From contig JBDRPX010000028.1 of assembly GCA_043826565.1 (NCBI GenBank), forward strand, positions 16,607-80,606: a DNA stretch of 64,000 nt, in the 5' to 3' direction. Shown here piece by piece: positions 92-35,028 of the stretch (positions within the stretch are counted from its first letter, which is position 1; the number at the start of each line of letters is the position of its first letter). Under the pieces are notes generated by a model that was not told where the DNA came from, searched no databases, and worked only from the letters and a program-made list of their open reading frames with translations. This stretch comes from Candidatus Omnitrophota bacterium. GTDB taxonomy: Bacteria > Omnitrophota > Gorgyraeia > B26-G9. Position numbers and translations under genes: made by a program.

Positions 92-1153
92 ATGAAAAAT
101 AAAAAAATTGTTTTTCTCATAAGTTTTTGTCTGCTTTTGTTAAACTGCTCTGTTGCGTTCGCAACTTCATCCCCAGGATATGCATCAATATCCGGGCATG
201 TAAGCGATAAGATTATGGAAACCCCTTTACAGGGTGTATATGTCTTAATAAAATGCGGTTCATTTAAATCTTCGGTGATTACGGATGCTTCCGGATATTA
301 TGAATTTCCTCAAGTTCCTATTGATAAAAAGAAAAATAAAGATCAGGATAAAGCGCAGATTATTGTGCTTGCAAAACAATACCGTCCGGAAATAAAAAAA
401 CTTAATTTAAAGCCTAATAAAAATTACACCGTTGACTTCGCGCTCAATACGTTATTTCAATACCCTATTCTTAAGGGGAAGATAATTGATAGTTCTACTT
501 CTGAAGGTATTGCCGGAGCTCTAATTACTGTAAAAAATCCAAAAGAGACTTATACGGCAATAACCAATACACTTGGTCATTATGTTCTGCGGATAATGAA
601 CCGGCGAAAAGGCAAGTATACAGTAGAAGCTAGTGCTGATGGGTATATATCCAGCGCACCTCAAGTCCTAACAACCCGTCCACGCCTTACCTATACTTTA
701 AATTTCTCCCTAGATAAGGTAATGCTGGGAATTAATGTATCTCCGGATTCTTGGAACATTGGGGAAATAGCTCCTGGGAACATAGCGACAATGTCTTCCG
801 GACAAGAAATAGTTGTCAGTAATATAGGTTGGGAGACAAATCAGACCTATAGTCTGATGGTGGTCAATCCTTCAGGATGGACTGTTTCTCAAACTAGTGT
901 CGGAAGTGACAAATATATTTTAAATGCTTCTTTTGCTGAGAATCCGCTAACTATAAATTGGAATGAAGCTAATCACGCACTTTCTACAGAAGCTCAGAAA
1001 GCAACAAATACTAAATTTGCCGCGGATCAGACCGGGGTTAATGTCGCGCCGAATGAAGAACGAACTCTTTGGCTGCAATTTAAAGCTCCGACATCGACAA
1101 CTATTACCCAACAGCAGGAAATTGAGGTAATTATAAATACACAAGCTCCTTGA
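92..1153 (+). CDS. Secreted protein with two carboxypeptidase-regulatory-like (CarbopepD_reg) beta-sandwich domains
   Basis: N-terminal signal peptide (MKNKKIVFLISFCLLLLNCSVAFA). Two segments with the G-V-x-D..G-x-x-V..DxxGxY pattern typical of CarbopepD_reg domains. Long clean ORF. Confidence 0.6.
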   Translation: MKNKKIVFLISFCLLLLNCSVAFATSSPGYASISGHVSDKIMETPLQGVYVLIKCGSFKSSVITDASGYYEFPQVPIDKKKNKDQDKAQIIVLAKQYRPEIKKLNLKPNKNYTVDFALNTLFQYPILKGKIIDSSTSEGIAGALITVKNPKETYTAITNTLGHYVLRIMNRRKGKYTVEASADGYISSAPQVLTTRPRLTYTLNFSLDKVMLGINVSPDSWNIGEIAPGNIATMSSGQEIVVSNIGWETNQTYSLMVVNPSGWTVSQTSVGSDKYILNASFAENPLTINWNEANHALSTEAQKATNTKFAADQTGVNVAPNEERTLWLQFKAPTSTTITQQQEIEVIINTQAP

Positions 1154-1233
1154 TTATAAGGAGCTTTTATATAGATCGGTATTTTATATTAATTGTTAAA
1201 CATGTGAAAAAGGAATGAAAGGAGGAACAAGAA

Positions 1234-1707
1234 ATGAAGAAAGGGTTAATTTTAGGATTAATTATAGTTTTGTTGTGCGCGGCCAACGCGATGGCGCAGA
1301 CAGCCCAAATAGCGGTTACGGTTACAATCACTCAGAGTATTTCCGTGTCGGTAACTCCGGGCAGCTATGCGTTTGGGGGAACTGATTCCGGGCAGACTTT
1401 GTCTACAGCAGCAGGCGCGTTTGTCGCGACAAACGATGGAAATGGCGCAGAAAATCTTGCGATAACAGTTGGTGACAGCGCGAATTGGACCGCAAGTACA
1501 GCAGCAGGCGCGGATGCATTCGCGATGAATGCTTATATTGGAGCTACTTGGGCTTTGATAGATCCGGCAAGCGGAGTAAGTTTAGATGCCGGGTTAGCAC
1601 CAGCAGGAACCCAGAGTTTTGGGTTACAGCTTTTAGTGCCGACTTCTACATCTAATGCCGGAGTTGAACAGACTATTCCGGTAACAGTTACAGCATCAGC
1701 AAGTTAA
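1234..1707 (+). CDS. Small secreted Ala/Thr/Gly-rich protein, possibly a pilin/SCPU-like beta-strand subunit
   Basis: RBS AGGAGGAAC 8 nt upstream. Signal peptide ending AMA|QTA. Alternating T/V/A beta-strand-like N-terminus. 157 aa. Confidence 0.5.
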   Translation: MKKGLILGLIIVLLCAANAMAQTAQIAVTVTITQSISVSVTPGSYAFGGTDSGQTLSTAAGAFVATNDGNGAENLAITVGDSANWTASTAAGADAFAMNAYIGATWALIDPASGVSLDAGLAPAGTQSFGLQLLVPTSTSNAGVEQTIPVTVTASAS

Positions 1708-1725
1708 ATTTAAACTGAAGTTTGC

Positions 1726-1770
1726 GGGAATAGGATAGAAAGTGCGAAATATGCTTTTTATCCTATTCCC
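1726..1770. terminator. Perfect 12-bp inverted repeat (GGGAATAGGATA...TATCCTATTCCC) with a long loop, downstream of the 1234..1707 gene
   Basis: Arms at 1726-1737 and 1759-1770 read directly from the sequence. The loop is 21 nt and the T-tract is weak, so this may be a terminator or an operator-like hairpin. Confidence 0.35.
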
Positions 1771-1803
1771 CAGTACCTTTTAGAAAAAGAAAGTATATTT
1801 ATA

Positions 1804-2247
1804 ATGAAATCATTTTGTTTACTAATTATATTTTTATTAGCGCCGGTTACCGTTTATGCCGGAGGATTATCCTCTAATTGGGGGGAAGTTATTGTAAATA
1901 ATTTAGAACCGGGTAATACCTATGATCTTAATGAGATTGCCGGGAGTACTTTTAAAATCACTAATAATTTTGATAAGGAAATAACCATAAAGCTGGAAGT
2001 TTTAAGGCCAATAGAAGAAGAATTAAAACCAGGGTATGAACCGATTGAAAATACTTCCTGGGTGCAAATAGAGGAAGAAGCAAAAATCAATGCCGGAGAA
2101 TATAAAGTTATTCCCATAAAAATATCTATTCCTGATGATAGCAAGTATTTGGGAAAGAAATATCATTTTTGGGTATGGACGTATACTTCCGGGCAGGCTG
2201 TAGGTGTAGGATTAAAAAGCAGGATATTGATTTCGATAATAGATTAG
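1804..2247 (+). CDS. Small secreted hypothetical protein
   Basis: Signal peptide MKSFCLLIIFLLAPVTVYA. 147 aa. No recognisable catalytic motif. Confidence 0.5.
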   Translation: MKSFCLLIIFLLAPVTVYAGGLSSNWGEVIVNNLEPGNTYDLNEIAGSTFKITNNFDKEITIKLEVLRPIEEELKPGYEPIENTSWVQIEEEAKINAGEYKVIPIKISIPDDSKYLGKKYHFWVWTYTSGQAVGVGLKSRILISIID

Positions 2248-2261
2248 ATATTTAAAATGTT

Positions 2262-5200
2262 ATGATAAGAAAATTAATTTCTACAATAATAGGCATAATC
2301 TTAATGTTCGGGGTAAGCAGTTCTGCTTTAGCCGGACTTTCGGAGACGATTCTGCTTACTGTAACTGTCACTGATAATGACCCGCCTCCGTTTGTGGAAA
2401 TACTTTCTCCAATAGAAGGACAGGCCTATTCCGGAAGTTTTGAGATCCGGGGTACAGCTACAGATGATAATTTTGACTATGCTCAGCAGTATCATGGCCG
2501 GGGCGCAGTGCCTACAGAGTGGCTTTTGGATGATACCTATGATGATCCGTTTGAAAACTTTGTCGTTGCGAATGCTGATATAAGTGAAACAATAAACGGT
2601 GTTTACTCTATAAAATTTTGGGCAATAGATACTGCCGGACATGAAGCAGAAGATATTGTGATTTTTTCAATTGAAAATCCCCTTGTCTTACATACTCCGG
2701 CATCTTCTGAAGAAATGATTTCACCAAATGCCGATGGAAACAAAGATACAGTTGTCTTTTCCGCATATACTAATGATCCCAGAGTCAATTGGGATATTTC
2801 TATAAAAAATGATAGCAATGTGGAAATAAGGCATATCAGCGGAAGCGGAGCAGTTATTAGGGAAATTCCTGATCCTGGTGATCCGGGTGATACGAATGAA
2901 GCGGCAGTTATCGAACAGGTTTGGGATGGAAAAAATAATTCCGGAGTTGTTGTGTTGGATGGAAATTACACCTTTGAAATAATGGCTAATTATAATGGCC
3001 AGACTGTTGGGCCGGTTGGCGGTCAGGTTGAAGTTGATACAGCTCCACCGATAGCGCAGATTATCTCTCCGCAGGATTATGATGTTATCTCCGGAACCAT
3101 TGAAATGATCGGAACAGCAACTGATGCAAATTTTGAAATATGTGAAGTATATCATGGGTTAGGGGATGCCCCCGCGGAATGGGAGTTATTAAATGAATCA
3201 TACACAATTCCCCAGATCAATGCTGTTTTATTGTCAGCAAATATAATGGAAACAGTTAATGGCCTGCATTCTTTGCGGATTGTGGTTAAAGATAAAGCGG
3301 GCAATGAATCCATAGATACTCTTATAGTGGAATTTCAGAATGAGTTTAGATTATCGGATGGTGATGTTTCGGAGGATTTATTTTCTCCTAACACGGATGG
3401 GAACAAAGATACAGTTACAATTTCCGCGCGAACTAATGAAGAAACAGCCGCATGGACAATTATTATAAAAGATTCTATTGGCGCGGAAGTTAAACAATTT
3501 TCCGGACAAGGTGCTCAGATAGAACAGATTTGGGATGGTAAGGATGATTTCGGAGTTGTTGTGCCGGATGGAGTTTATACTTATGAGATCAGGGCTGCTT
3601 ATAATAGCCAGACTTTGGGTCCGTTAACCGGAACAGTAGAAATAGATACAGTTTATCCTGCGGCGGTGATTAGTTATCCGCAGAATGATGATGTAGTGAC
3701 CGAAGGCCCGAGGGTTGATGTGATTGGAACAGCCACAGATGATAATTTTGTGAGGTGTACTGTTTATTCAGGGTATGGGAGTAATCCTGATGAATGGGGG
3801 TATCGAGATACTTATAATGAACAAAAATCAGCAGAAATTTTGGCTGTTTTCGGAGTGTATTCACCTTTAATTAATACTACTTATGGAGCAAAAATAAGTG
3901 TTTTAGATAGAGCCGGCAATGAATCTGTGGCAACAGTGGTTTTTGATGTAAATTTAGGTTTTTATATTACTAATCAAAATGCTTCTTCGGCATTTATTTC
4001 TCCGAATGCTGACGGAGCTAATGATACCACAACGATTACAGCGGATGTTGTGGGATATATTTATTCTAGTACCTGGTTAATTTCTATTAGAGATTCGATA
4101 AATCAGGAAGTAAAACAGTTTAGCGGTTCAGGAAATATTAATCAAATATGGGATGGTAAGGATGCGCAGGGACAAGTGGTTCCTGATGGAGAGTATACTT
4201 ACGTGATAACCGCTACTTTTGGAGAGCAGACTACAGATCCTGTACAGGGAACTATTACTAAAGACACAGGGACTCCTATTGCTTTGATTACTTCCCCGCA
4301 GGAAAATGAAATTATTGATGATGGGCATACTGACCTTATCGGTACAGTGGGTGATGAAAATTTAGCCCAATATTCAGTTTATTACGGTCAGGGAAATTCC
4401 CCAGCAGAGTGGCATTTAATAGGGGCAGAGACTCATCATAGACTGAATGATGAGCTGGTGGTTAATGGCTGGTATACACAAGGATTGGGAAATGGCGCAT
4501 ATACTGTGCGGCTATTAGTAGAAGATAAAGCGGGAAATAAAGCTATAGATGATGTTTTAGTTGAAGTTAATAACGGGTTTTATATAGAGAATTACAATGC
4601 AAATCCTGAAAATATCTCGCCTAATAATGATGGATTTAAGGATAGCACAGTAATTAATGCGACAGTTGTTGGATATGAAACTAACTGGACGATTGCTATT
4701 AAAGATATAGAGAACAATATTATCCGTCAAATAAATGGTTTTGGTTTTAGCATTAACTTTGTTTGGGATGGGAATAATGAATCAGGGGAGACGGTTCCTG
4801 ACGGTATTTATACGATAGAAATTACGGCTGCATATAATACTATTACTACCGATCCTGTGGGTAGTCAGATTCAGGTAGATGTTTCTCCGCCAATAGCTAT
4901 TATTGCATCTCCGCAGGAAAATGCTGTTGTTTCCGGTTATGTAGAGATTTCCGGAACAGCTGCTGATGAAAGTTTTAAACAATATTCTGTTTTTTATGGT
5001 GAAGGGGCTGCTCCTGCAGAATGGAGTCAATTGGCAGTGAATAGTTATATTAAAGTTGATGAGGTATTAGCGTACTGGGATACTCGAGATTTAAATAACG
5101 GCACATATTGCCTGAAATTAGTTGTGGAGGATAATCATAATCTTGAGACCGAACAGATTATTCAGGTTGAAGTTGATAATGGATTTTCTATAATCAACTT

Positions 5201-8200
5201 TTGGATGGATCCGGATTATATTTCACCGAACGGAGATAATTTTAGAGATACAACTTCATTTCATGCGCAAATAATCGGGTATGCTGCGGATTGGGCAATT
5301 AGTATTAAAAATTCTGAGAATATGGAAGTTAGACGGCTTAGTGGACAAGGCTATTCAGTGAATGTTTCCTGGGATGGTAAAAATGAGTCAGGCATAGTAG
5401 TCCCGGATGGTGATTATACCTGGGAGCTTACTGCTGTATATAATACTCATACAGCAGATCCGATAAACGGGACCATAAAAATTGATGCTGCTTTTCCGAT
5501 AGCAGAAATAATTTCGCCTTTGCAAGATGAAGCAATTTCCGGAGAGGTTGATATTATGGGAACTGCTAATGATGCGAATTTTCATAGTTTTTCTCTTCAT
5601 TATGGCAAAGGAACAGATCCTCAGACTTGGGTATCTCTTTGTACGTCGCAGGATCCTGTGACTAATGGCATGTTGAATACATGGAATACTAATAATCTTG
5701 TAAATGGCATTTATACCTTGAGACTTGGAGTATGGGATGAGATAGGAAATAGTGTTTTTGATTTTGTACCGGTATTTTTGGCGAATGACCTTATTTTTGA
5801 AGATGTTAATATTACCCGTGATAGGATTTCTCCAAATGATGATGGTTTGAATGACAATACAATAATCACCGCTTGGACTAATGAAGCGGAAGCAGTCTGG
5901 ACGATTTCCATAAAAGATTCTACAGAGACAGTAGTGCGTGAGTTTACTGGTCAGGGATCTGATATAGAACAGGTATGGGATGGAAAGAACGAAGGGGGTG
6001 TTGTAGTAGACGGGGAATATAGCTGCGAGATAAGTGCAGAGTATAACAGCCAGACTGTTAGCGTGATTGCGGGAACTGTTATTGTGGATATTACTCCGCC
6101 GACAGCAATAATAACCTCGCCTGTTGAGAATGATAATGTTGCCGGGATTGTTACAATAACCGGGCAAGCTAATGATATTCATCTAAGTTCAAGAACACTT
6201 TATTACGGGCAAGGAGCTGGTCCAACAGAATGGATACAGCTATCTAATGTGGATTGGAATGAAGATGGTTTTAGCGCAACATGGGATACTTCTGGTCTGA
6301 CTAATGGGGTTTGTGTGTTACGTTTGGTAGTTAATGACAATTTTTCTCAGCAGACTATTAATTATGTTTCAGTTAATGTGCAAAATCCGTTAGTGTTGAT
6401 TTCTCCGAGTGTTGATTTTGAATATATAACTCCTAATGGTGATGGTATTCAAGATAATGTGACAATTACCGCTGTGGTAAATGAGCCACAAGCTAACTGG
6501 ACGATTTCCATAAAAGATTCTACAGAGACAGTAGTGCGTGAGTTTACTGGTCAGGGATCTGATATAGAACAGGTATGGGATGGAAAAGATGAGTTTGGTG
6601 TAGTTGTTCCGGACGGTGAATATACATATGAAGTAACTGCCGAATATGATACCCAGACAGCTGGGCCGGTTAGCGGGACAGTTATTGTGGATAATACTCT
6701 ACCTATAGCTGAAATAATATCTCCGCAGGAAAATGGAACGATTATGTGGTTTATGTCTATTATCGGAACAGCTAAAGATGATAATATCGCGGATTATTCT
6801 ATAAGTTATGGAAGAGGGGATGCTCCGGATACCTGGAGTACTTCTAGCCTTACCTTAAAGAGTCCAAGAAATATTTCCCGGGAAAATATTGAATTAGCTA
6901 CATGGAATACATCGGATAATTTTAATGATAGATATACGATAAAGCTTTCCGTTATTGATTTAGCCGGAAATACATCTACGGCTGAGGTTAGAGTAGATTT
7001 AGCTACCGGATTATGGATTCAAGATGCAGCGAGTAGTTTGAATTATATGTCTCCGAATGGAGATGGCGTTAAAGACACAGCAGCTATTAGCGGACGTCTA
7101 AATGAAGAATTCGCAAATTGGAAAGTTGAAATAAAGACTTCCTGGGGGGCGGTGATTCGCCAGTTTAGCGGACTGGGGTATAATATATCACAAGTTTGGG
7201 ATGGTAAAGACGAAACCGGAACTGTGGTAGATGACGGTGCGTATATATGGGAAATCAACGCAGAATATAATGGGCAAACCGCTTCTCCGGAAAGCGGTTG
7301 GATTACAGTTGATCTTAATCTGCCAACTGTTTCCATAACGACTCCTGGGGAAAATGATATTGTAAGCGGAAGTGTGAAAATAATTGGCACAGCAACAGAT
7401 GCGAATTTTTACTATTATAAATTTTCTTATGGAGTAGGTGCTGATCCTGTTGCTTGGAACAACTCTAATAATATAAGTACTCCTGTAGAAGATGGTGTTT
7501 TGGCTACTTGGTCTACTGGTAATCTAATCAATGGTATATATTCCTTAAGAATCATGGCCTGGGATCGCTTATTGCAGGTATCTTCAGATACGATTTTGGT
7601 TACCGTGGCTAATGAACTAACTTTACAGAATAGTTCTGTTTCTTTAGATGTAATATCTCCAAATGAAGATGGACAAAATGATAGTACAATAATAACAGCT
7701 TGGACAAATGAAGAATTAGCTACCTGGGCTATTTCCATAAAGAATTCCACAGATGGAGTAGCGCGTGAGTTTACCGGTCAGGGGTCTGATATAGAGCAGG
7801 CCTGGGACGGTAAAAATGAAACGGAAACAGTGGTTGCTGACGGTGAATACACTTATGAGGTTAGTGTTGAATATAATAGTCAGACAGTTGGCCCGATAGG
7901 CGGTACGATTATTGTAGATTCAACTGCACCTATTGCTTTAATTAGTTTACCTGGAGAAAATGATATTGTTAGCGGGAATGTGGATATTATTGGTATTGCT
8001 GCTGATCCTAATATGCATAAATATTATATTCATTATGGAAAAGGAACTGCGCCGACTGAGTGGACAAACATTAAAGAGAGTACGCAAACAGTAGATAACG
8101 CAGTTTTATTTACCTGGGATACGTTGAATAGAACTAATGGAATATATACATTAAGACTTCTGGTTCGTGATATTGTTAATAATGAATCTATGGATACTGT

Positions 8201-26050: not shown

Positions 26051-26932
26051 ATGATACAAATGAAGAAAATTGAAATTTTGGTTATAATAATTATTTTGAT
26101 TTTTCAAACTTTTTGCTTTGCGGATATCGTCTACCTTAACAGTGGGAAGAAAATTGAAGGAGAAATAATAGAGCAAACACAAGACTATGTTAAAATAAAT
26201 ATGATGGGCATGGGTTTTTATGTAACCTACCAAACGGAAGATATAAAAGAAATCAAAAAGACGGAAAATAAAGCATATATTCCCAATTCTTCTAATAATG
26301 ACTTATCGCAACCAATGCAGAATTTAGTTGAACAAATAGAAGCGCAAACAATTGATCAAGAAAGTTATCTTCTATATATTCCCTCTAATATTCATAAGGA
26401 AAAGAAATACCCGTTGGTTATTGCTCTGCATCCCGGAGGACATGCTCCGGCTATGATTGAAACATGGAAAAATATAGCGGAAGAACATAAATGGATAGTA
26501 TTTGCTTCAAAGACCTTTCGGAATGGAGCTAGTAATTGGAATGAGCCTATTTATGAAGCTTTAGAAGAAGTATTTATGAAATATCCTATAAACAAAAGAA
26601 AAATTATTTCTACGGGAATATCAGGAGGAGGAATGGGAGCACATATGCTTTCATATAGTTCTCTGAATCTAGTTTCGGCGGTAATTGCTAATGTGGGTAG
26701 GATCCATCCTAATTATAAAAAAGCTCCTGCTAAAAATGACTATCCAAGAAAAAAGATAGCGGTATTTTTAGCTAGCCCTACAGATTTTAATTATGAACAT
26801 ATGAAAGACGATAGAAATTTTTTAAGGGACCTTGGATGGGATGTTAAATGGATTGAATTTGAAGGAGGGCATGTAACGGCTCCAGAACATGCGTATCAGG
26901 AAGCCGCAGCATGGCTTGATAGGTATTTGTAA
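26051..26932 (+). CDS. Secreted alpha/beta-hydrolase (esterase/depolymerase-like)
   Basis: Signal peptide. Nucleophile elbow GISGGGMGAH (GxSxG) and HPGG motif. C-terminal 'EGGHV' His. Confidence 0.6.
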   Translation: MIQMKKIEILVIIIILIFQTFCFADIVYLNSGKKIEGEIIEQTQDYVKINMMGMGFYVTYQTEDIKEIKKTENKAYIPNSSNNDLSQPMQNLVEQIEAQTIDQESYLLYIPSNIHKEKKYPLVIALHPGGHAPAMIETWKNIAEEHKWIVFASKTFRNGASNWNEPIYEALEEVFMKYPINKRKIISTGISGGGMGAHMLSYSSLNLVSAVIANVGRIHPNYKKAPAKNDYPRKKIAVFLASPTDFNYEHMKDDRNFLRDLGWDVKWIEFEGGHVTAPEHAYQEAAAWLDRYL

Positions 26933-27074
26933 GGAGGTAAATTACAAAAACGATTTTTGTTTTATTAATTGTTTAGTTTTTCAATTAACGAATATTCAAT
27001 TAACGAATAACTGGAGCTCCCCCGATTTAATAGACACCTAGTTTACTATTCTTATTTTCTTTTCCAGCTGGCTC

Positions 27075-27103
27075 TTGACAATAATTATATTGTGTGGTAT
27101 TAT
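27075..27103 (+). promoter_or_regulatory. Sigma70-like promoter TTGACA-N17-TATTAT upstream of the AbiEi gene
   Basis: -35 TTGACA at 27075-27080, 17-nt spacer, -10 TATTAT at 27098-27103. About 40 nt upstream of the ATG at 27144. Confidence 0.45.
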
Positions 27104-27143
27104 TATTTCTGTAAGTTAACATTAATGTTAATTAAAGGAAATT

Positions 27144-27773
27144 ATGCGTTACGATGAATTTAAAGCAAAAGTACGGGGTTTCCCGGTATTAAGTACGCAA
27201 TTGCTGCAATTATTATCCGGCGAGGATGCGGGGTTTTCGGTGCAATTAGGGCGCTGGGTAAATGCGGGAAAAGTAATTCAGCTGAAGAAGGGGATTTACT
27301 TACTTAATGAACTTGACCGGAAGATTATGCCTTCAAGGCTTTATCTTGCCGGAGAACTATATAAACCTTCTTATATTAGCCTGGAGTATGCTTTGGCATA
27401 TTATGGCTTAATTCCGGAAAAAGTAGCAGATGTTACTTGTGTTTGCGCGAAAAAAACGGCAATGTTTCAAACTCCACTGGGAAGGTTTATTTATCAGCAT
27501 GTTAAAGATGGTTGTTTTAACGGATTTAGGCAAGTAAAAGATGAATCCGGTTTGAATTTTTTTATCGCATCTCCCGAGAAAGCACTAGTGGATTTTTTTT
27601 ATTTGAATTTGGGATTATTTAAAAAAGATTATGTGTTGGTTGGGCGGGAATCACTTCGTTTGCAAAATATGAAAACTCTTGATTGGGAAAAATTATTAAG
27701 TTTAGCCGGGCTATTCAGGGTTAAAAAACTAATGGAGGTTGTCCGTGCTTTTAGGGAGGAAAATAATGATTGA
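27144..27773 (+). CDS. abiEi: Type IV toxin-antitoxin system antitoxin, AbiEi family (wHTH transcriptional regulator)
   Basis: N-terminal 'FPVLSTQLLQLLSG...LGRWVNAGKVIQLKKGIYLL' typical of AbiEi. About 200 aa. Immediately upstream of, and overlapping, the AbiEii gene. Confidence 0.7.
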   Translation: MRYDEFKAKVRGFPVLSTQLLQLLSGEDAGFSVQLGRWVNAGKVIQLKKGIYLLNELDRKIMPSRLYLAGELYKPSYISLEYALAYYGLIPEKVADVTCVCAKKTAMFQTPLGRFIYQHVKDGCFNGFRQVKDESGLNFFIASPEKALVDFFYLNLGLFKKDYVLVGRESLRLQNMKTLDWEKLLSLAGLFRVKKLMEVVRAFREENND

Positions 27774-28566
27774 TGTCTTAAGGCAGAGTTTATCGGAAGC
27801 TGCTACACAGGAAGAAAAAGCGTATAAGGTTCGTGAAATGCTGCAGGTATTGATGCTGAAAATAATGTTTGACCGGGGCGCGTTTAAGCATCTTTGTTTT
27901 GTCGGCGGGACTGCTTTACGGATTCTTTATGGTTTAAGAAGGTACAGCGAAGACCTGGATTTTAGTTTAGTAGGAAAAACTCCGTATTCTTTTTCGGAGA
28001 TGCTGAAAAAATTATTATCTGAGCTTAGGCATTATGGTTTTACGGCGGAAGCGCGGGCTAATCAAAAAGGAGTAGTTCAAAGCGGTATGGTGAAGTTTCC
28101 TGATTTGCTGGAACAACTGGGATTGAGCAGGTTAAAGGAACAAAAGCTTGCTGTAAAGTTAGAAGTTGATACCAATCCTCATCAGGGCGGCAAAACATTG
28201 TTTATGCCGGTAACCAAATCATTTGTTTTTGCTGTGAATACTTTTGATTTGCCTTCGTTATATGCTACCAAGTTACATGCCTGTTTCTACCGGAAATTTA
28301 TTAAGGGAAGGGATTTTTATGACCTGGTTTGGTATCTTGGCAAAAGAATTGAGCCTAATTATTTGCTTCTTAATAATGCTATCCAGCAGACGAAAAAGGG
28401 GTATCGGAAAATCGAAACCAGTAATTTTAAAGAGTTTTTAGCGGAGCATTTGTCCCAGGTTGATTTAAGTGCTGCTAAAAAAGATGTTGAGCGTTTTTTA
28501 GAAGATAAGAAGGAATTAAAGCTTTTAGATAAAAAAATTATTCTGGGTATGGTTGAGGGAAGTTAG
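27766..28566 (+). CDS. abiEii: Nucleotidyltransferase toxin, AbiEii/AbiGii family (DUF1814)
   Basis: 'CFVGGTALRILYGLRRYSEDLDFSL' matches the GGTAL...SEDLDF nucleotidyltransferase motif of AbiEii. RBS AGGGAGGA. ATGATTGA overlap with the antitoxin stop. Confidence 0.85.
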   Translation: MIDVLRQSLSEAATQEEKAYKVREMLQVLMLKIMFDRGAFKHLCFVGGTALRILYGLRRYSEDLDFSLVGKTPYSFSEMLKKLLSELRHYGFTAEARANQKGVVQSGMVKFPDLLEQLGLSRLKEQKLAVKLEVDTNPHQGGKTLFMPVTKSFVFAVNTFDLPSLYATKLHACFYRKFIKGRDFYDLVWYLGKRIEPNYLLLNNAIQQTKKGYRKIETSNFKEFLAEHLSQVDLSAAKKDVERFLEDKKELKLLDKKIILGMVEGS

Positions 28567-28574
28567 AAAACCAA

Positions 28575-28602
28575 AAGAGGGGAAATAATTATCTCCCCTC
28601 TT
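28575..28602. terminator. Bidirectional rho-independent terminator between convergent genes
   Basis: Perfect 9-bp stem AAGAGGGGA / TCCCCTCTT with a 10-nt loop. Reads T-rich (TTTTGGTTTTCT) on the minus strand for the convergent 28623..29558 gene. Confidence 0.55.
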
Positions 28603-28622
28603 TGTGAAGATACTAAGAATTG

Positions 28623-29558
28623 TTATTTTTTCTGAGCCAGGACATTGGCGATGCTGTATTTATAAGCCGCGCCCACAGAGTTGATGACGTCCATTAAAGC
28701 TTTGTCATAAGCAGACATATCAATACTGCCTTTTTCCGGCCCGGCAATATCCGCGATATTCATGATCGGCAGAGGCATTTCCAGAATCGGCAGCCACTGG
28801 GTATAAAGGTCATAACGCATTTTTTTATTACCCTTAAACCCGACTTCCTGCCCGCGGATATCCGCGCTTAAAAGAACATTAAATGACTGCAGTATCGGAG
28901 TGCCGCCGCTGCCTTTATCTACTCTAAAATTAATCTGCAAAAATCCGTCCGCGCCCAGTTCATGAGTTATCTCCGCGACATTCATCGCTACTTTGATCAT
29001 GCCTAAAGGCCCGGGGAAAAGCCCTAATCCGGTGGCGGATACTTTTTGCGTTTTGGTTACAACCGTATCCGACATCATTCCTGATTTTACTCCGCGTCCG
29101 GCTTTTTCTTCAGCCAGGTTGAATGTCTGATATAATTCGTTTTGGCCGACTTCTTCGGTAGAAATTATCTCGATGCCGTTGTCTTTAAAAATTTCCGTAA
29201 CAATGTCATAAACCCGGTTTACAGTATTGGTGTAATAATCTTTGTCTAAATCCAAGGTGCTGGTTTTTGTGGTGGTTGTATAAAATTGCCGGCCCTGATT
29301 AGCCGCGGATCTGGCAGCGGCTCTGCTGGCAAATGCTCCTGCACTTACCTCTTTGGAGGTAACAAACTCTCCGTAACATTCCAGGATTACCAGTTTTTTA
29401 ATATTTTTTGATTTAAGTATTTTTACATTCGCTTTGGCAATTTTTCTGGCGATCTTTTCCGTATCGCTGAATTTTGCTTCGTCATACTTCAGCGGCCCGG
29501 CATATACCGCGGACTGACAGAGTAAAACCATTACTGCTGACCATAACCATTTTTTCAT
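28623..29558 (-). CDS. Secreted hypothetical protein
   Basis: RBS AAGGAGGA then ATG (MKKWLWSAVMVLLCQSAVYA|GP signal peptide). About 311 aa. No recognisable motif. Confidence 0.6.
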   Translation of the reverse strand: MKKWLWSAVMVLLCQSAVYAGPLKYDEAKFSDTEKIARKIAKANVKILKSKNIKKLVILECYGEFVTSKEVSAGAFASRAAARSAANQGRQFYTTTTKTSTLDLDKDYYTNTVNRVYDIVTEIFKDNGIEIISTEEVGQNELYQTFNLAEEKAGRGVKSGMMSDTVVTKTQKVSATGLGLFPGPLGMIKVAMNVAEITHELGADGFLQINFRVDKGSGGTPILQSFNVLLSADIRGQEVGFKGNKKMRYDLYTQWLPILEMPLPIMNIADIAGPEKGSIDMSAYDKALMDVINSVGAAYKYSIANVLAQKK

Positions 29559-29745
29559 AAATCCTCCTTTCAAGTGTTTATAATTTAGGACAATATATTT
29601 AATTTATTATACTAATTTATCATTTCCGGGGCAAGAAATAACTGGAATATAAAAAAAGTATTTATGGTAAAAGGTTTACTTTTGTGTTAGAATTTTTAAT
29701 GGATTTATAAACTTTAAATTTGTGTCGGATACATGGAGGTTTAAG

Positions 29746-30798
29746 ATGCTGGAAATTTTAGTTGTTGATGATGAGCGTGAAATAGCCAAAGCTCTCAAGA
29801 ATTTTTTCATTGCGAAAAATTATACGGTGTATGTTGCCAATAACGGCAAAAAAGCGATTGAAATAGTTAAAACACACCGGCCTCATCTTGTCTTTTTAGA
29901 TATCCGCATGCCGGAGATGGATGGACTGACAGTTCTCCGGACTATCCGAGAATATGATAAATCAATAAAAGTTATTATGGTTACCGCCTTTGGTACGCGT
30001 GAGATCGTTAATGAAGCCATGCGTCTGGGCGCGGCTGATTTTATCCGCAAGCCTTTTACTCTCGACTATCTGGAACATGATGTTATGGAAAAAGTAAATG
30101 TTCAGTTATTCGAAGATTTGCGCACAGAGATAAGTGAAAAAGATGATCTTATCGACCAATTACAAAAACTAAACAAAAGAGTATCACGCAATTTTTATCA
30201 GACCATGCTTTCTTTGGCCGCGGCATTAGAAGCCCGGGATCAATATACCCACGGACATTCCGAACGGGTTGATTTATTCAGCAAACTTATTGCCGGAGAA
30301 TTAAAAGCGAATAATAATCCTGTGGTCACAACAAAATTCTTTGATGATTTGCATATTGAATCACGGTTGCATGATATCGGTAAGATCGCGATCCCGGATG
30401 ATATTTTAAACAAACCGGGGAAGTTGACCAAAGAAGAATTCCGTGAAATCCAAAGACATCCCGCGGAGAGCGCGCGTATTTTAGCGCCGTTGGATGGGAT
30501 TAAAGAACATATTGATGTTGTTTATAACCATCATGAGCGTTTTGACGGCACCGGGTATCCGGAACAGCGGACCAGGCAAGATATCCCGCTGCGGGCCAGA
30601 ATAATTTCCGTGGCTGATGCTTTTGACGCGATGACGTCAGACCGGCCGTATCGTATGGCGATGCCGCAGGAAAAGGCTTTTTCTGAACTGGAAAAAAACA
30701 AAGGCACGCAGTTTGACGCGGAAATAGTGGACGCGTTTGTTTCCGCTTATAAGAATAAAAAAGATAAAGCTAAGGAGGCAATGGAAGCGATCATCTAA
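29746..30798 (+). CDS. Response regulator with receiver domain and HD-GYP phosphodiesterase domain (RpfG-like)
   Basis: Receiver 'LVVDDE...D55-like FLDIRMP...K'. HD-GYP 'HGHSERVD...HDIGKIAIPDDILNKPGKLT...HHERFDGTGYP'. RBS GGAGGT. Confidence 0.85.
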   Translation: MLEILVVDDEREIAKALKNFFIAKNYTVYVANNGKKAIEIVKTHRPHLVFLDIRMPEMDGLTVLRTIREYDKSIKVIMVTAFGTREIVNEAMRLGAADFIRKPFTLDYLEHDVMEKVNVQLFEDLRTEISEKDDLIDQLQKLNKRVSRNFYQTMLSLAAALEARDQYTHGHSERVDLFSKLIAGELKANNNPVVTTKFFDDLHIESRLHDIGKIAIPDDILNKPGKLTKEEFREIQRHPAESARILAPLDGIKEHIDVVYNHHERFDGTGYPEQRTRQDIPLRARIISVADAFDAMTSDRPYRMAMPQEKAFSELEKNKGTQFDAEIVDAFVSAYKNKKDKAKEAMEAII

Positions 30799-30938: not shown

Positions 30939-31988
30939 ATGCTAAAGATCCTGGTAGTGGATGATGAGCCGGAAATAACAGAGTTACTAAAAAACTTTTT
31001 TTCGCGTAAAGAGTATACAGTTTTTATTGCCAATAACGGAGAATCTGCTTTAGAGATTGTCAAGGAGCAGAGGCCGCATCTGGTGTTCCTGGATATCCGT
31101 ATGCCGGGGATGAACGGATTAAATGTTTTGAAAAATATCCGCCAGATGGATACGAGTATCAAGGTTATTATGGTAACCGCGCTCGAAAGTGATGCGATGG
31201 TAAGAGAGGCTTATTCTTTGGGGGCAGTTGATTTTGTGCGCAAGCCGTTTAATCTGGAGTATCTTGAACGTGATGTTATCGAAAAAGTAAATGCCAAACT
31301 TTTTGGCGACTTGCGGCAGGAACTTGACGAAAAAAGTAAACTGGTCGAACAATTAGCGGATCAGCTTAATCAGATCAGTGAGCTGAACAGTAAGCTAAAA
31401 CGCAATTTTTATCAGACGATTCTTTCTTTGGCCACGGCATTAGAAGCCCGGGACCAATATACTCACGGACATTCCGAACGGGTTGATTTATATTCCAAGA
31501 TTATTGCCGAAGAGTTGAGAGATAATCAAAACTGGCCGATCGATGATGAATTTTTGGATAATCTGCATGTGGAAGCGCGTTTACATGATATCGGCAAGAT
31601 CGCGATTCCGGACGGAGTTTTGAATAAGCCCGGGAAATTAGATGACGAAGAATTTAATTTAATTCAAGCGCATCCGGTAAAAAGCGCGAAAATTTTAGCT
31701 CCTTTAGAAGACCTTAAGGAAAATGCCGAAGTGATCCGTCATCATCATGAAAGATATGACGGCCGGGGATATCCCAGTGCTTTAAAAGGAGAAGATATCC
31801 CGGCCCGGGCCAGAATTATCGCGGTAGCTGATTCTTATGACGCGATGACATCTAATCGTCCGTATCGGAAGGCTTTGTCGATTGAAATCGCCATGGGAGA
31901 ACTGGAAAAAAATAAAGGCACGCAGTTTGACGCGCAGGCTGTAGATGCTTTTATCAGCGCGATCAAAAAAGGTAAAATACCTAATTAA
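30939..31988 (+). CDS. Response regulator plus HD-GYP domain, tandem paralog of the preceding gene
   Basis: Same architecture and about 60% identity by eye ('HGHSERVDLYSK', 'HHERYDGRGYP'). Same RBS context GGAGGTTTGTAATG. Confidence 0.85.
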   Translation: MLKILVVDDEPEITELLKNFFSRKEYTVFIANNGESALEIVKEQRPHLVFLDIRMPGMNGLNVLKNIRQMDTSIKVIMVTALESDAMVREAYSLGAVDFVRKPFNLEYLERDVIEKVNAKLFGDLRQELDEKSKLVEQLADQLNQISELNSKLKRNFYQTILSLATALEARDQYTHGHSERVDLYSKIIAEELRDNQNWPIDDEFLDNLHVEARLHDIGKIAIPDGVLNKPGKLDDEEFNLIQAHPVKSAKILAPLEDLKENAEVIRHHHERYDGRGYPSALKGEDIPARARIIAVADSYDAMTSNRPYRKALSIEIAMGELEKNKGTQFDAQAVDAFISAIKKGKIPN

Positions 31989-32030: not shown

Positions 32031-32387
32031 ATGTCTAAAAGATTTGAAGATTTACAAGTATGGCAACTGGCGGTTGATTTGGCAGTTAAAATATATAAGA
32101 GTTCAAAGGTATTTCCTGCAGAAGAGATATATGGGTTGACTTCACAATTAAGAAGAGCTGTTGTATCAGTTTCTACTAATATTGCTGAAGGAAGCGGCAG
32201 ATCATCAAAAAAAGAATACCGCCATTTTGTTGAAATAGCGATTGGTTCAATTAATGAGGTGGAAAATCTTTGGATAATCGCACAAAAGATAGGATATTTA
32301 AAAGAAATAGATTTTAAGTTGATAAAAAATAATATTGAGGAAGTGCATGGATTATTAAATGGATTTCGCAGGTATTTGAGTAAGTAA
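32031..32387 (+). CDS. Four-helix-bundle protein (23S rRNA intervening-sequence protein family)
   Basis: 'FEDLQVWQLAVDLAVKIYK...FPAEEIYGLTSQLRRAVVSVSTNIAEGSGRSSKKEYRHF' is the hallmark of this family. 118 aa. Confidence 0.8.
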   Translation: MSKRFEDLQVWQLAVDLAVKIYKSSKVFPAEEIYGLTSQLRRAVVSVSTNIAEGSGRSSKKEYRHFVEIAIGSINEVENLWIIAQKIGYLKEIDFKLIKNNIEEVHGLLNGFRRYLSK

Positions 32388-33466: not shown

Positions 33467-34339
33467 ATGATAAAACAAATTAGAAAAAAAATTAGAATTC
33501 TTTTTGATGTAATATCTTATTTTATCCTTTCTGTAAAGCTTCATCTTATGCATTCTTATTCATGTTATATCTGTGGAAATAAAACACCAAATATTTATCT
33601 GCCTTACTGGAGAAGGCCTGTTCTTAAATGTTCCAGATGTGATTTAAAATTTGCTTTAACAAAACAAGGCCTTGACGATGTTAAAGTAATTCATGGCCGC
33701 CGCCATTGGAACGATATTTATAAAGAACTAGGATGTGAGGATAACTCTTTGGCCTGGAAAGATTGGCAAAAATGGAAACACGGCTTATTAGAGAAGTTTG
33801 CTTTTTCCGAGATTGAAAAGGAGTTTGGTTCTGCAAGAAGTGTCTTAGATGTGGGGTGTGGAAATGGTATGTTTCTGGAAATGTTCCTGCAGCGTAAATG
33901 GAGATGCGTAGGTGTTGATTTCAGTGAATTTGTTAAAGATATTTCGTTTTCTCCAGAAATTAATATTATAATATCTCCTTTTGAAAAGACACGTTTTGAT
34001 AGCAAACAGTTTAATTTAATTACTTTAATGCATGTCTTAGAGCATTTTATTGATCCAGTTGCATGTTTAATTGAAATTAAAAGGATTTTGAAAGATGATG
34101 GATATTTATTAATGGAAGTTCCTTTGACCCAGGATTATTACGGTATTTATCATCAAAGTTATTTTACAAAAAAAAGCTTATATCTTTTGTTGAAAAAAGT
34201 TGGAATAAAGGTCGTACAATGTTTTACGTATAAAGATGAGATTAAAAAGAAGGCACACTATAATTTTGTAGTACTTGCTAACAAGCTGACCTCCTCCCTA
34301 AAAACTGTACCACTTGCAAATGTGAAAATCAAGTGGTAA
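33467..34339 (+). CDS. Class I SAM-dependent methyltransferase with an N-terminal Cys4 zinc-ribbon
   Basis: CYICGN...CSRCD zinc ribbon. SAM motif I 'VLDVGCGNGMF'. Confidence 0.65.
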   Translation: MIKQIRKKIRILFDVISYFILSVKLHLMHSYSCYICGNKTPNIYLPYWRRPVLKCSRCDLKFALTKQGLDDVKVIHGRRHWNDIYKELGCEDNSLAWKDWQKWKHGLLEKFAFSEIEKEFGSARSVLDVGCGNGMFLEMFLQRKWRCVGVDFSEFVKDISFSPEINIIISPFEKTRFDSKQFNLITLMHVLEHFIDPVACLIEIKRILKDDGYLLMEVPLTQDYYGIYHQSYFTKKSLYLLLKKVGIKVVQCFTYKDEIKKKAHYNFVVLANKLTSSLKTVPLANVKIKW

Positions 34340-34360: not shown

Positions 34361-34627
34361 ATGAAAGGGAAAAGATATCCGGTAGAGCAGATCATTGGGA
34401 TACTAAAAGAATGTGAATCGGGGATGAAAACGGGAGATTTATGCCGCAAGCATGGGATTTCGACCAATACTTTGTATAATTGGAAGGCGAAATACGCAGA
34501 CATGAATATCAGTGATGCTCGCAGGTTAAAAGAACTTGAGCAAGAAAACGGACGGCTTAAGAGATTAGTAGCGAATCAAGCATTAGATATCCAGATGCTC
34601 AAGGAGATAAACTCAAAAAACTGGTAA
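34361..34627 (+). CDS. IS3-family transposase OrfA (HTH protein)
   Basis: See the mobile_element entry. RBS AAAGGAGGTG upstream. Confidence 0.75.
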   Translation: MKGKRYPVEQIIGILKECESGMKTGDLCRKHGISTNTLYNWKAKYADMNISDARRLKELEQENGRLKRLVANQALDIQMLKEINSKNW

Positions 34628-34662
34628 AGCCCGAAGCAAAACGCGAAGCGGCAAAACATCTC

Positions 34663-35028
34663 ATGAATCGTTTCGGGCAGAGTCAAAGACGCAGTTGTAA
34701 AATTGTTAAATTACATCGATCATCGTATAGTTACAAACACCAGTGCAAAGATGATGGCAAAGCACGAACAAGAATTAAGCAATTAGCAAAAGAAAACCGT
34801 AAATGTATGTGTTTAGCAAAGAAGTTTTTCTCTAAACTGGAAGAATATCCAACAGATAAAGCTGCGTATCAAAGGAATATTCATAATACGCTTAAGGTTG
34901 CGAAGTATTTGAATAATATCAATAATTTCGATGTTTCAGAAATACGTGTTCTTTTAGACCAGCTTTTACAAATATGGCAGATGGTCTGGGCAGAGAAAGA
35001 TATTGAGGAAACGTTGCTCATTCCATAG
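34663..35028 (+). pseudogene. Truncated IS3 OrfB fragment (N-terminal HTH only, no DDE domain)
   Basis: Only the first ~30 aa resemble OrfB N-termini. The remainder is non-homologous and Lys-rich. No frameshift site (A6G-like) seen. Confidence 0.5.

Follow-up and report, generated by a model that had tools for sequence, protein, structure and literature searches.

What is the two-gene cassette that lies between two ordinary chromosomal genes in a 64,000-nt stretch of contig JBDRPX010000028.1 (hereafter the window, to whose full length all coordinates refer), and how would it be controlled? The contig comes from a metagenome-assembled genome (MAG) of Candidatus Omnitrophota bacterium, which is uncultured. 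The original prediction, made from the DNA letters, described an AbiEi-type antitoxin followed by an AbiEii/DUF1814 nucleotidyltransferase, together a type IV toxin-antitoxin or abortive-infection module with its own promoter and terminator. The core of that description is borne out: the locus is an antitoxin-first AbiEi/AbiEii (COG5340/DUF1814) bicistronic cassette of a known kind. We assign a probability of about 0.85 to its being an intact two-gene toxin-antitoxin module of the AbiE family (COG5340/COG2253, AbiEi-AbiEii) that also works by the mechanism carried over from that family. The features are collected in Table 1.

Pfam analysis of the abiEii product reports PF08843 with 90.4 bits (2.2e-25; curated cut-off 22.5) over profile positions 9-229 of 238, and the PADLOC AbiEii model matches it at 5.5e-70. 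The GGTAL (residues 47-51) and SEDLDF (residues 61-66) segments, on which the nucleotidyltransferase call had been based, are present and stand up in a proper alignment, being invariant across 41 AbiEii homologues of 30-67% identity. All four published family motifs, namely I/II (hG[G/S]...DhD with an Arg), III (KLxAaxxR), and IV (+DxxD) (Dy et al., PMC3985639), are found. Motifs I/II read V46-G47-G48 ... R59-Y-S61-E-D63-L-D65, with G47, R59, S61, D63, and D65 invariant among the 41 toxins, while motif III (K169-L-H-A-C-F-Y-R176) and motif IV (R182-D183-F-Y-D186) contain the invariant residues K169, A172, and D186, and conservation is 90% or more at R176, R182, and D183. The profile of these 41 toxins reaches the Streptococcus agalactiae AbiEii chain of an AbiEi:AbiEii crystal structure (9HLO_B) at 5.8e-7; it pairs G47/R59/S61/D63/D65 with G49/R63/T65/D67/D69 and lays motif III on K173..R180 and motif IV on KDFYD. 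Foldseek analysis of the AlphaFold2 model (predicted local distance difference test score 90.2) returns TglT/MenT3 (6j7r, 8.5e-8) and JHP933 (4o8s, 1e-7), with generic pol-beta-fold enzymes far behind. By sequence, profile, and fold, AbiEii is a DNA-polymerase-beta-type DUF1814 nucleotidyltransferase in which every catalytic motif is intact.

The abiEi product is annotated by NCBI as 'hypothetical protein ABII88_07680'. The PADLOC AbiEi model covers its full length at 1.4e-50. Sequence searches of the PDB with the single sequence or with a 22-sequence profile returned nothing meaningful; a broader profile of 38 relatives, 21 of which match PF13338 AbiEi_4, reaches the S. agalactiae AbiEi chains 6Y8Q_A/9HLO_A at 6e-4. 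Fold comparison places S. agalactiae AbiEi (6Y8Q) nearest and Rv2827c of Mycobacterium tuberculosis second. The loop G88-L89-I90-P91-E92 aligns with the D85-E86-I87-P88 loop that S. agalactiae AbiEi requires for complex formation and antitoxicity, I90-P91 falling on I87-P88; within the clade P91 and E92 do not vary, and I90 hardly does. Sequence, profile, and fold thus agree on a two-domain AbiEi, with a winged-helix DNA-binding domain and an antitoxicity domain, in line with the winged helix-turn-helix antitoxin originally predicted.

Both reading frames are open over the extents first proposed for them, and the coupling overlap is present: the genes share 8 nt (ATGATTGA), in which the abiEii ATG (27766-27768) precedes the abiEi stop codon TGA (27771-27773). 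The longest possible abiEii frame in a program-made list of open reading frames (ORFs) begins at TTG 27739. The start at ATG 27766 is preferred because it is preceded by a ribosome-binding site, because homologues measure 263-270 residues, and because M1 is invariant; the public gene call, also of 266 residues, favours it as well. Of 31 non-redundant junctions in relatives, 16 have a 4-nt ATGA overlap, three the 8-nt overlap seen here, and six a 3-nt gap (together 25/31). The 84 related loci, drawn from metagenomes and assemblies, include 73 in which an AbiEi-like ORF immediately precedes the toxin; in the remaining 11 the toxin lies no more than 340 nt from a contig end.

The promoter anticipated upstream of abiEi is also found. 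It matches the consensus at 11 of 12 positions, carries a TG extension, and is the top-scoring site of a 4-kb scan. Promoter-like sites were no commoner in the scan than chance allows (14 found, 13.2 expected from shuffled sequence), and the consensus match by itself is not significant. Nevertheless, the other four of the five 11/12 sites on both strands of the window lack the TG extension, and a TTGACA-N17-TAnnnT element lies equally far upstream of abiEi in seven diverged relatives (L005, L008, L009, L011, L012, L014, and L042). As far as sequence can establish it, the cassette is a bicistronic, translationally coupled operon under a strong promoter, with co-transcription predicted.

Between this promoter and the abiEi start codon lies an imperfect palindrome whose arms agree at 14 of 18 positions around a perfect 16-bp core (TTAACATTAATGTTAA, 27116-27131); an independent repeat search reports the same place as an inverted repeat of 22 nt with 77% complementarity (27102-27123/27124-27145). 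The palindrome starts just past the -10 box, spans the expected transcription start, near 27110, together with the Shine-Dalgarno sequence, and reaches the start codon. Among relatives, 27 non-redundant loci whose start codon is mapped have a palindrome in the equivalent place, from about -40 to about 0, with 14-19 matched arm positions in L012, L029, and L033. Its mean score is 9.4, as compared with 5.7 for dinucleotide shuffles (100 per locus) and 5.4 for the region further upstream, and in 16 of the 27 loci no more than 5 of 100 shuffles come up to the observed score. The 11 closest loci have the half-site consensus TTTC-YGTAA-RTAAYCA in both arms, its outer TTTC/GAAA being invariant. This environmental AbiE clade with a conserved palindrome is found in Omnitrophota, Elusimicrobiota, Planctomycetota, Firestonebacteria, and other MAGs. 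AbiEi monomers have been reported to bind a pair of 23-bp inverted repeats separated by 3 bp (PMC7319586). The palindrome is therefore best regarded as a candidate DNA operator bound by AbiEi, a reading favoured because the half-site sequence is conserved, the corresponding RNA fold is weak, and AbiEi is known to bind inverted repeats.

If we assume that the characterised members of the family are a guide, the cassette would work as follows. AbiEi monomers would bind both arms of the 38-bp palindrome, cover the transcription start and the ribosome-binding site, and in this way repress their own operon. AbiEi's C-terminal domain would dock on AbiEii via the I90-P91-E92 loop, and the docked toxin would auto-phosphorylate Ser61, located two residues N-terminal to the first catalytic Asp, and be switched off, which is the logic of a type VII system. 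Antitoxin shortage or removal of the phosphate, for instance upon phage infection or loss of the element, would free AbiEii to add nucleotides, pyrimidines in characterised relatives, to tRNA 3' ends. Aminoacylation and translation would then be blocked by the modified tRNA, leading to reversible growth arrest or abortive infection. The model draws on reports that AbiEii-type toxins are reversibly bacteriostatic nucleotidyltransferases (PMC3985639), that tRNA receives nucleotides from MenT toxins and from S. agalactiae AbiEii, the latter preferring UTP and CTP, and, in a 2026 preprint (bioRxiv 10.64898/2026.01.19.700257), that AbiEi, which binds AbiEii, induces auto-phosphorylation of the toxin, whereby AbiE was moved from type IV to type VII. 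The experimentally mapped phospho-acceptor of S. agalactiae AbiEii is T65, whose phosphorylation depends on AbiEi and abolishes activity. Because Ser61 is invariant in the clade at the position of T65, it is the predicted phospho-acceptor, and the same switch as in S. agalactiae AbiE is likely; the resulting S-x-D-x-D pattern is also that of MenT3 (S78/D80/D82).

Several points weigh against such a reading. The abiEi product has no Pfam match at E 0.01 and scores 39.9 bits against an NCBIfam AbiEi cut-off of 150, so that its assignment needed the profile and fold evidence given above; the search of AbiEi/COG5340 models proposed in the original prediction thus succeeded with PADLOC and failed with Pfam and NCBIfam. 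Toxicity, neutralisation, DNA binding, phosphorylation, and the tRNA target would all be transferred from relatives at only 14-20% identity, the type VII mechanism is partly preprint-based, and the sequence reveals neither nucleotide nor tRNA specificity, the toxin alignment giving no reliable position for the R220 equivalent. A good U-tract is missing from the + strand terminator. Finally, S. agalactiae AbiE conferred no protection against 32 coliphages in Escherichia coli, and a defence role is accordingly not guaranteed.

Two elements of the model have direct competitors. The palindrome could act as a 5'-leader RNA hairpin that hides the ribosome-binding site, and hence in translational control rather than as a DNA operator. 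Its right arm does include the Shine-Dalgarno sequence and end at the start codon, and, of the four mismatches between the arms, two would pair as G-U in RNA. As the main explanation this was rejected on the weakness of the predicted fold (-4.7 kcal/mol, z -0.8), which 39 of 200 shuffles equal; moreover, transcription is expected to start downstream of the outer portion of the left arm, and what is conserved between loci is the half-site sequence itself, beyond mere complementarity. Together with the known binding of inverted repeats by AbiEi proteins, this makes RNA control very improbable and a DNA operator the preferred interpretation. Concerning neutralisation, classical type IV behaviour would mean that toxin and antitoxin never come into contact and that AbiEi counteracts the toxin indirectly. 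The proteins did not co-precipitate in the original description of type IV (PMC3985639), and type IV is the label under which this locus was first read. A crystal structure of the AbiEi:AbiEii heterodimer nevertheless exists (9HLO chains A and B), T65 phosphorylation has been reported to depend on AbiEi, and neither the equivalent Ser61 nor the contact loop varies within this clade, so that indirect counteraction is improbable here. The AbiEi/AbiEii cassette itself stands, and 'type IV' is probably an outdated, historical name for it.

The role of the module is a separate matter, on which the relatives and the surroundings bear. Comparison by tblastn of five flanking proteins with 91 related loci returned only generic similarity of HD and receiver domains at ~30% identity, and the tetratricopeptide repeat protein, the secreted esterase-like protein (26051..26932), and the secreted protein (28623..29573) occur beside none of the 91 related cassettes. 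The co-variation with neighbouring genes that the original prediction had proposed to check was thus absent, and its description of the cassette as self-contained holds. A contig scan with the downstream secreted protein gave relatives only at 45-54% identity, in unrelated MAGs. The closest relative of the cassette, L005 (67% and 57% identity), has a different neighbourhood, beside other toxin-antitoxin fragments. From the flanking genes accompanying 0/91 related cassettes it follows that the module moves by itself, and these comparisons mark it as an autonomous, horizontally mobile unit. AbiEii relatives occur on 42 plasmid records (no more than 36% identity), eight of them conjugative, and on eight IMG/VR contigs; no relative of the toxin was found in isolated phage genomes. 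The G+C content around the cassette shows no compositional break, a repeat search found no convincing flanking direct repeats or att-like sites, no mobility gene adjoins the cassette, and the window holds no second abiE copy.

For phage defence or abortive infection, we infer a role at this locus from the family, in which lactococcal AbiE, SanaTA, and RlegTA give phage phenotypes; of the predicted phage-defence or addiction module, membership in AbiE is confirmed and the defence function rests on that family inference. The same machine could instead serve as an addiction system that stabilises a mobile or variable genome segment by post-segregational killing. The plasmid-borne and conjugative relatives speak for this, as do the 32 phages unaffected by S. 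agalactiae AbiE, the IS3 remnant 5.8 kb away, and the setting of L005 among other toxin-antitoxin fragments; AbiE is also reported to stabilise an integrative and conjugative element in Streptococcus suis (PMC11062541). Against it stand the known phage phenotypes, the ordinary chromosomal flanks, in which no gene for an integrase, a transposase, conjugation, or replication borders the cassette, and the absence of flanking direct repeats and of a compositional break. Addiction is for these reasons a possible role, though with less than even odds.

Distant relatives show a different arrangement of the upstream region. In L017, L028, L031, and L047, the palindrome itself seems to contain a -35-like TTGCA as well as a -10-like hexamer, the latter ending ~6 nt short of the ATG, and no Shine-Dalgarno sequence is visible upstream of abiEi. 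This suggests a leaderless abiEi message in these loci, with promoter and operator being one and the same sequence. By extension, the environmental clade might possess a variant AbiE regulatory architecture, in which one ~38-bp site bound by AbiEi controls transcription and also, via the leader, translation, and distant relatives are leaderless, although we regard this as a doubtful proposal with the odds well against it.

Downstream of abiEii, a hairpin separates the cassette from the convergent gene 28623..29573. Its perfect 10-bp stem (AAAGAGGGGA/TCCCCTCTTT) folds with -15.9 kcal/mol (z -2.7) when read on the + strand and with -21.1 kcal/mol (z -4.0) when read on the - strand. It is the - strand that carries the U-rich tail (UUUUGGUUUUCU), the + strand tail being UUUGUG. 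The hairpin is thus the predicted intrinsic terminator first of all of the - strand gene, because the U-rich tail sits on that strand, and probably a weaker stop for abiE. The bidirectionality first ascribed to it holds only partly, a good U-tract being present on the - strand alone.

Table 1. Features of the abiE cassette and its surroundings (positions in the window; key residues from the 41-toxin alignment)
Feature	Position	Strand	Remarks
Sigma-70-type promoter	27075..27103	+	-35 TTGACA 27075-27080; 17-nt spacer ending TGG (extended -10); -10 TATTAT 27098-27103
Candidate AbiEi operator, imperfect palindrome ATTTCTGTAAGTTAACAT-TA-ATGTTAATTAAAGGAAAT	27105..27142	.	~38 bp, between -10 box and start codon
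abiEi, antitoxin and autorepressor (function by family)	27144..27773	+	ATG start, open frame, 209 residues
AbiEi loop G88-L89-I90-P91-E92	27405..27419		Aligned to S. agalactiae AbiEi loop
Ribosome-binding site AGGGAGG of abiEii	27753..27759	+	Inside abiEi 3' end, 6 nt 5' of ATG 27766; read from sequence
abiEii, DUF1814 nucleotidyltransferase toxin (function by family)	27766..28566	+	ATG start, open frame, 266 residues
AbiEii G47-G48	27904..27909	+	Key residues
AbiEii R59		+	Key residue
AbiEii S61	27946..27948	+	Key residue
AbiEii D63-L64-D65	27952..27960	+	Key residues
AbiEii E133/D135		+	Key residues
AbiEii KLHACFYR, K169..R176	28270..28293	+	Key residues
AbiEii R182-D183-F184-Y185-D186	28309..28323	+	Key residues
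G+C-rich hairpin between convergent genes	28574..28603	.	Scan call on - strand, 13 pairs; fold energies
IS3-family remnant	34361..35028	+	5.8 kb downstream of cassette

The IS3 remnant reported downstream is real. It comprises an intact-looking orfA (34361..34627; PF01527 HTH_Tnp_1, 1.1e-22) and a truncated ORF (34663..35028) of 121 residues that has no Pfam match, and no DDE transposase domain follows. Some further observations concern the neighbourhood. A perfect 15-nt tandem direct repeat (TTCAATTAACGAATA x2, 26980..27009) lies in the intergenic region 65-95 nt 5' of the abiE -35 box and has no counterpart in L005. The secreted protein 26051..26932 (+), upstream of it, bears a weak likeness to extracellular short-chain polyhydroxyalkanoate (PHA) depolymerase and polyhydroxybutyrate (PHB)-depolymerase esterases, and its N-terminus resembles Leptospira LA_0442-type N-terminal domains, all of these matches being below curated cut-offs. 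Just past the convergent gene are two tandem paralogous response-regulator/HD_5 (HD-GYP-type) genes (29722..30798 and 30939..31988, +). An HD_5 protein is found directly 3' of the closest related cassette too (L005/L006; L005 9095..9889) at ~30% identity, which is probably a coincidence. In L005, ~2-4 kb 5' of the cassette (3985..6076), a 72-residue AbiEii fragment, an HTH_31/HTH_3 gene, and an NTP_transf_8 gene make up a small toxin-antitoxin-like cluster, and in the metagenome contig L021 the AbiEii homologue (1077..1820) has an in-frame stop, possibly marking a pseudogene or a sequencing error. Further downstream in the window, 32031..32387 (+) encodes a 118-residue protein of PF05635, '23S rRNA-intervening sequence protein' (3.2e-37), a four-helix-bundle family that also includes accessory proteins of diversity-generating retroelements. 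Finally, the methyltransferase gene 33467..34339 (+) has a weak, partial PADLOC match (2.3e-10) to mad2 of the 'mads' candidate defence system, most likely a generic methyltransferase-domain similarity.

Among known systems, the AbiEi-AbiEii pair of S. agalactiae (PDB 6Y8Q, 9HLO; PMC3985639, PMC7319586, bioRxiv 10.64898/2026.01.19.700257) is close in design. It has the same antitoxin-first order with overlapping genes, a two-domain antitoxin (winged helix-turn-helix and C-terminal domain), a DUF1814 toxin with motifs I-IV, an inverted-repeat operator between promoter and start codon (a candidate here), a Ser/Thr acceptor two residues before the first catalytic Asp, and the I-P loop of the antitoxin. 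The host, an uncultured Omnitrophota bacterium, is different, identity is only about 14-19%, and the details depart in several respects: the genes overlap by 8 nt instead of 4, the spacing from GG to DxD is 14 residues instead of 15-16, the acceptor is Ser instead of Thr, and the operator arms measure ~18 nt with a 2-nt gap as compared with 23 nt and a 3-nt gap. In M. tuberculosis, MenA3-MenT3 (TakA-TglT, Rv1044-Rv1045) provides the best fold match of the toxin, MenT3/TglT, with the same S-x-D-x-D; the matched PDB entries are the S78A, D82A, and E146Q mutants. Both nucleotidyltransfer to tRNA 3' ends and phosphorylation-based neutralisation have been demonstrated for MenT3. The antitoxin's second-best fold match belongs to the Rv2827c-Rv2826c pair (MenA4-MenT4), and the rv2827c promoter contains four inverted repeats bound with negative cooperativity (PMC7319586), in contrast to the single palindrome found here. 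By sequence profile, the closest solved structure is Helicobacter pylori JHP933 (PDB 4O8S, 4OK0; 1.9e-9), which possesses an identical RFSEDLDF motif and the KL..C/A..F motif. JHP933 is shorter, with 232 residues against the 266 of AbiEii. It is encoded in a plasticity zone and is not known to have a characterised AbiEi-type partner. The AbiE of Lactococcus lactis pNP40, Shewanella SanaTA, and Rhizobium RlegTA show the same COG5340/DUF1814 pairing; unlike the Omnitrophota cassette, they are plasmid-borne or come from Proteobacteria/Firmicutes.

The cassette is thus an intact, ordinary member of AbiE, real but of a thoroughly known kind. Its value for discovery is low, since few toxin-antitoxin or abortive-infection systems are as widespread as AbiE/DUF1814 modules; a database search returned more than 7,000 relatives of this toxin. 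To the first description are added the candidate operator, the Ser61 acceptor position, and the strandedness of the terminator. The abiEi gene, publicly a 'hypothetical protein' without a Pfam model, can now be annotated as AbiEi, and the candidate operator with its half-site consensus is defined for a large environmental AbiE clade. Conservation of Ser61 is an argument for applying the auto-phosphorylation (type VII) model of AbiE/MenAT control to candidate phyla as well. If the variant regulatory architecture were true, its operator and the Ser61 switch would together provide a compact scheme by which type VII systems of uncultured phyla are set and released.

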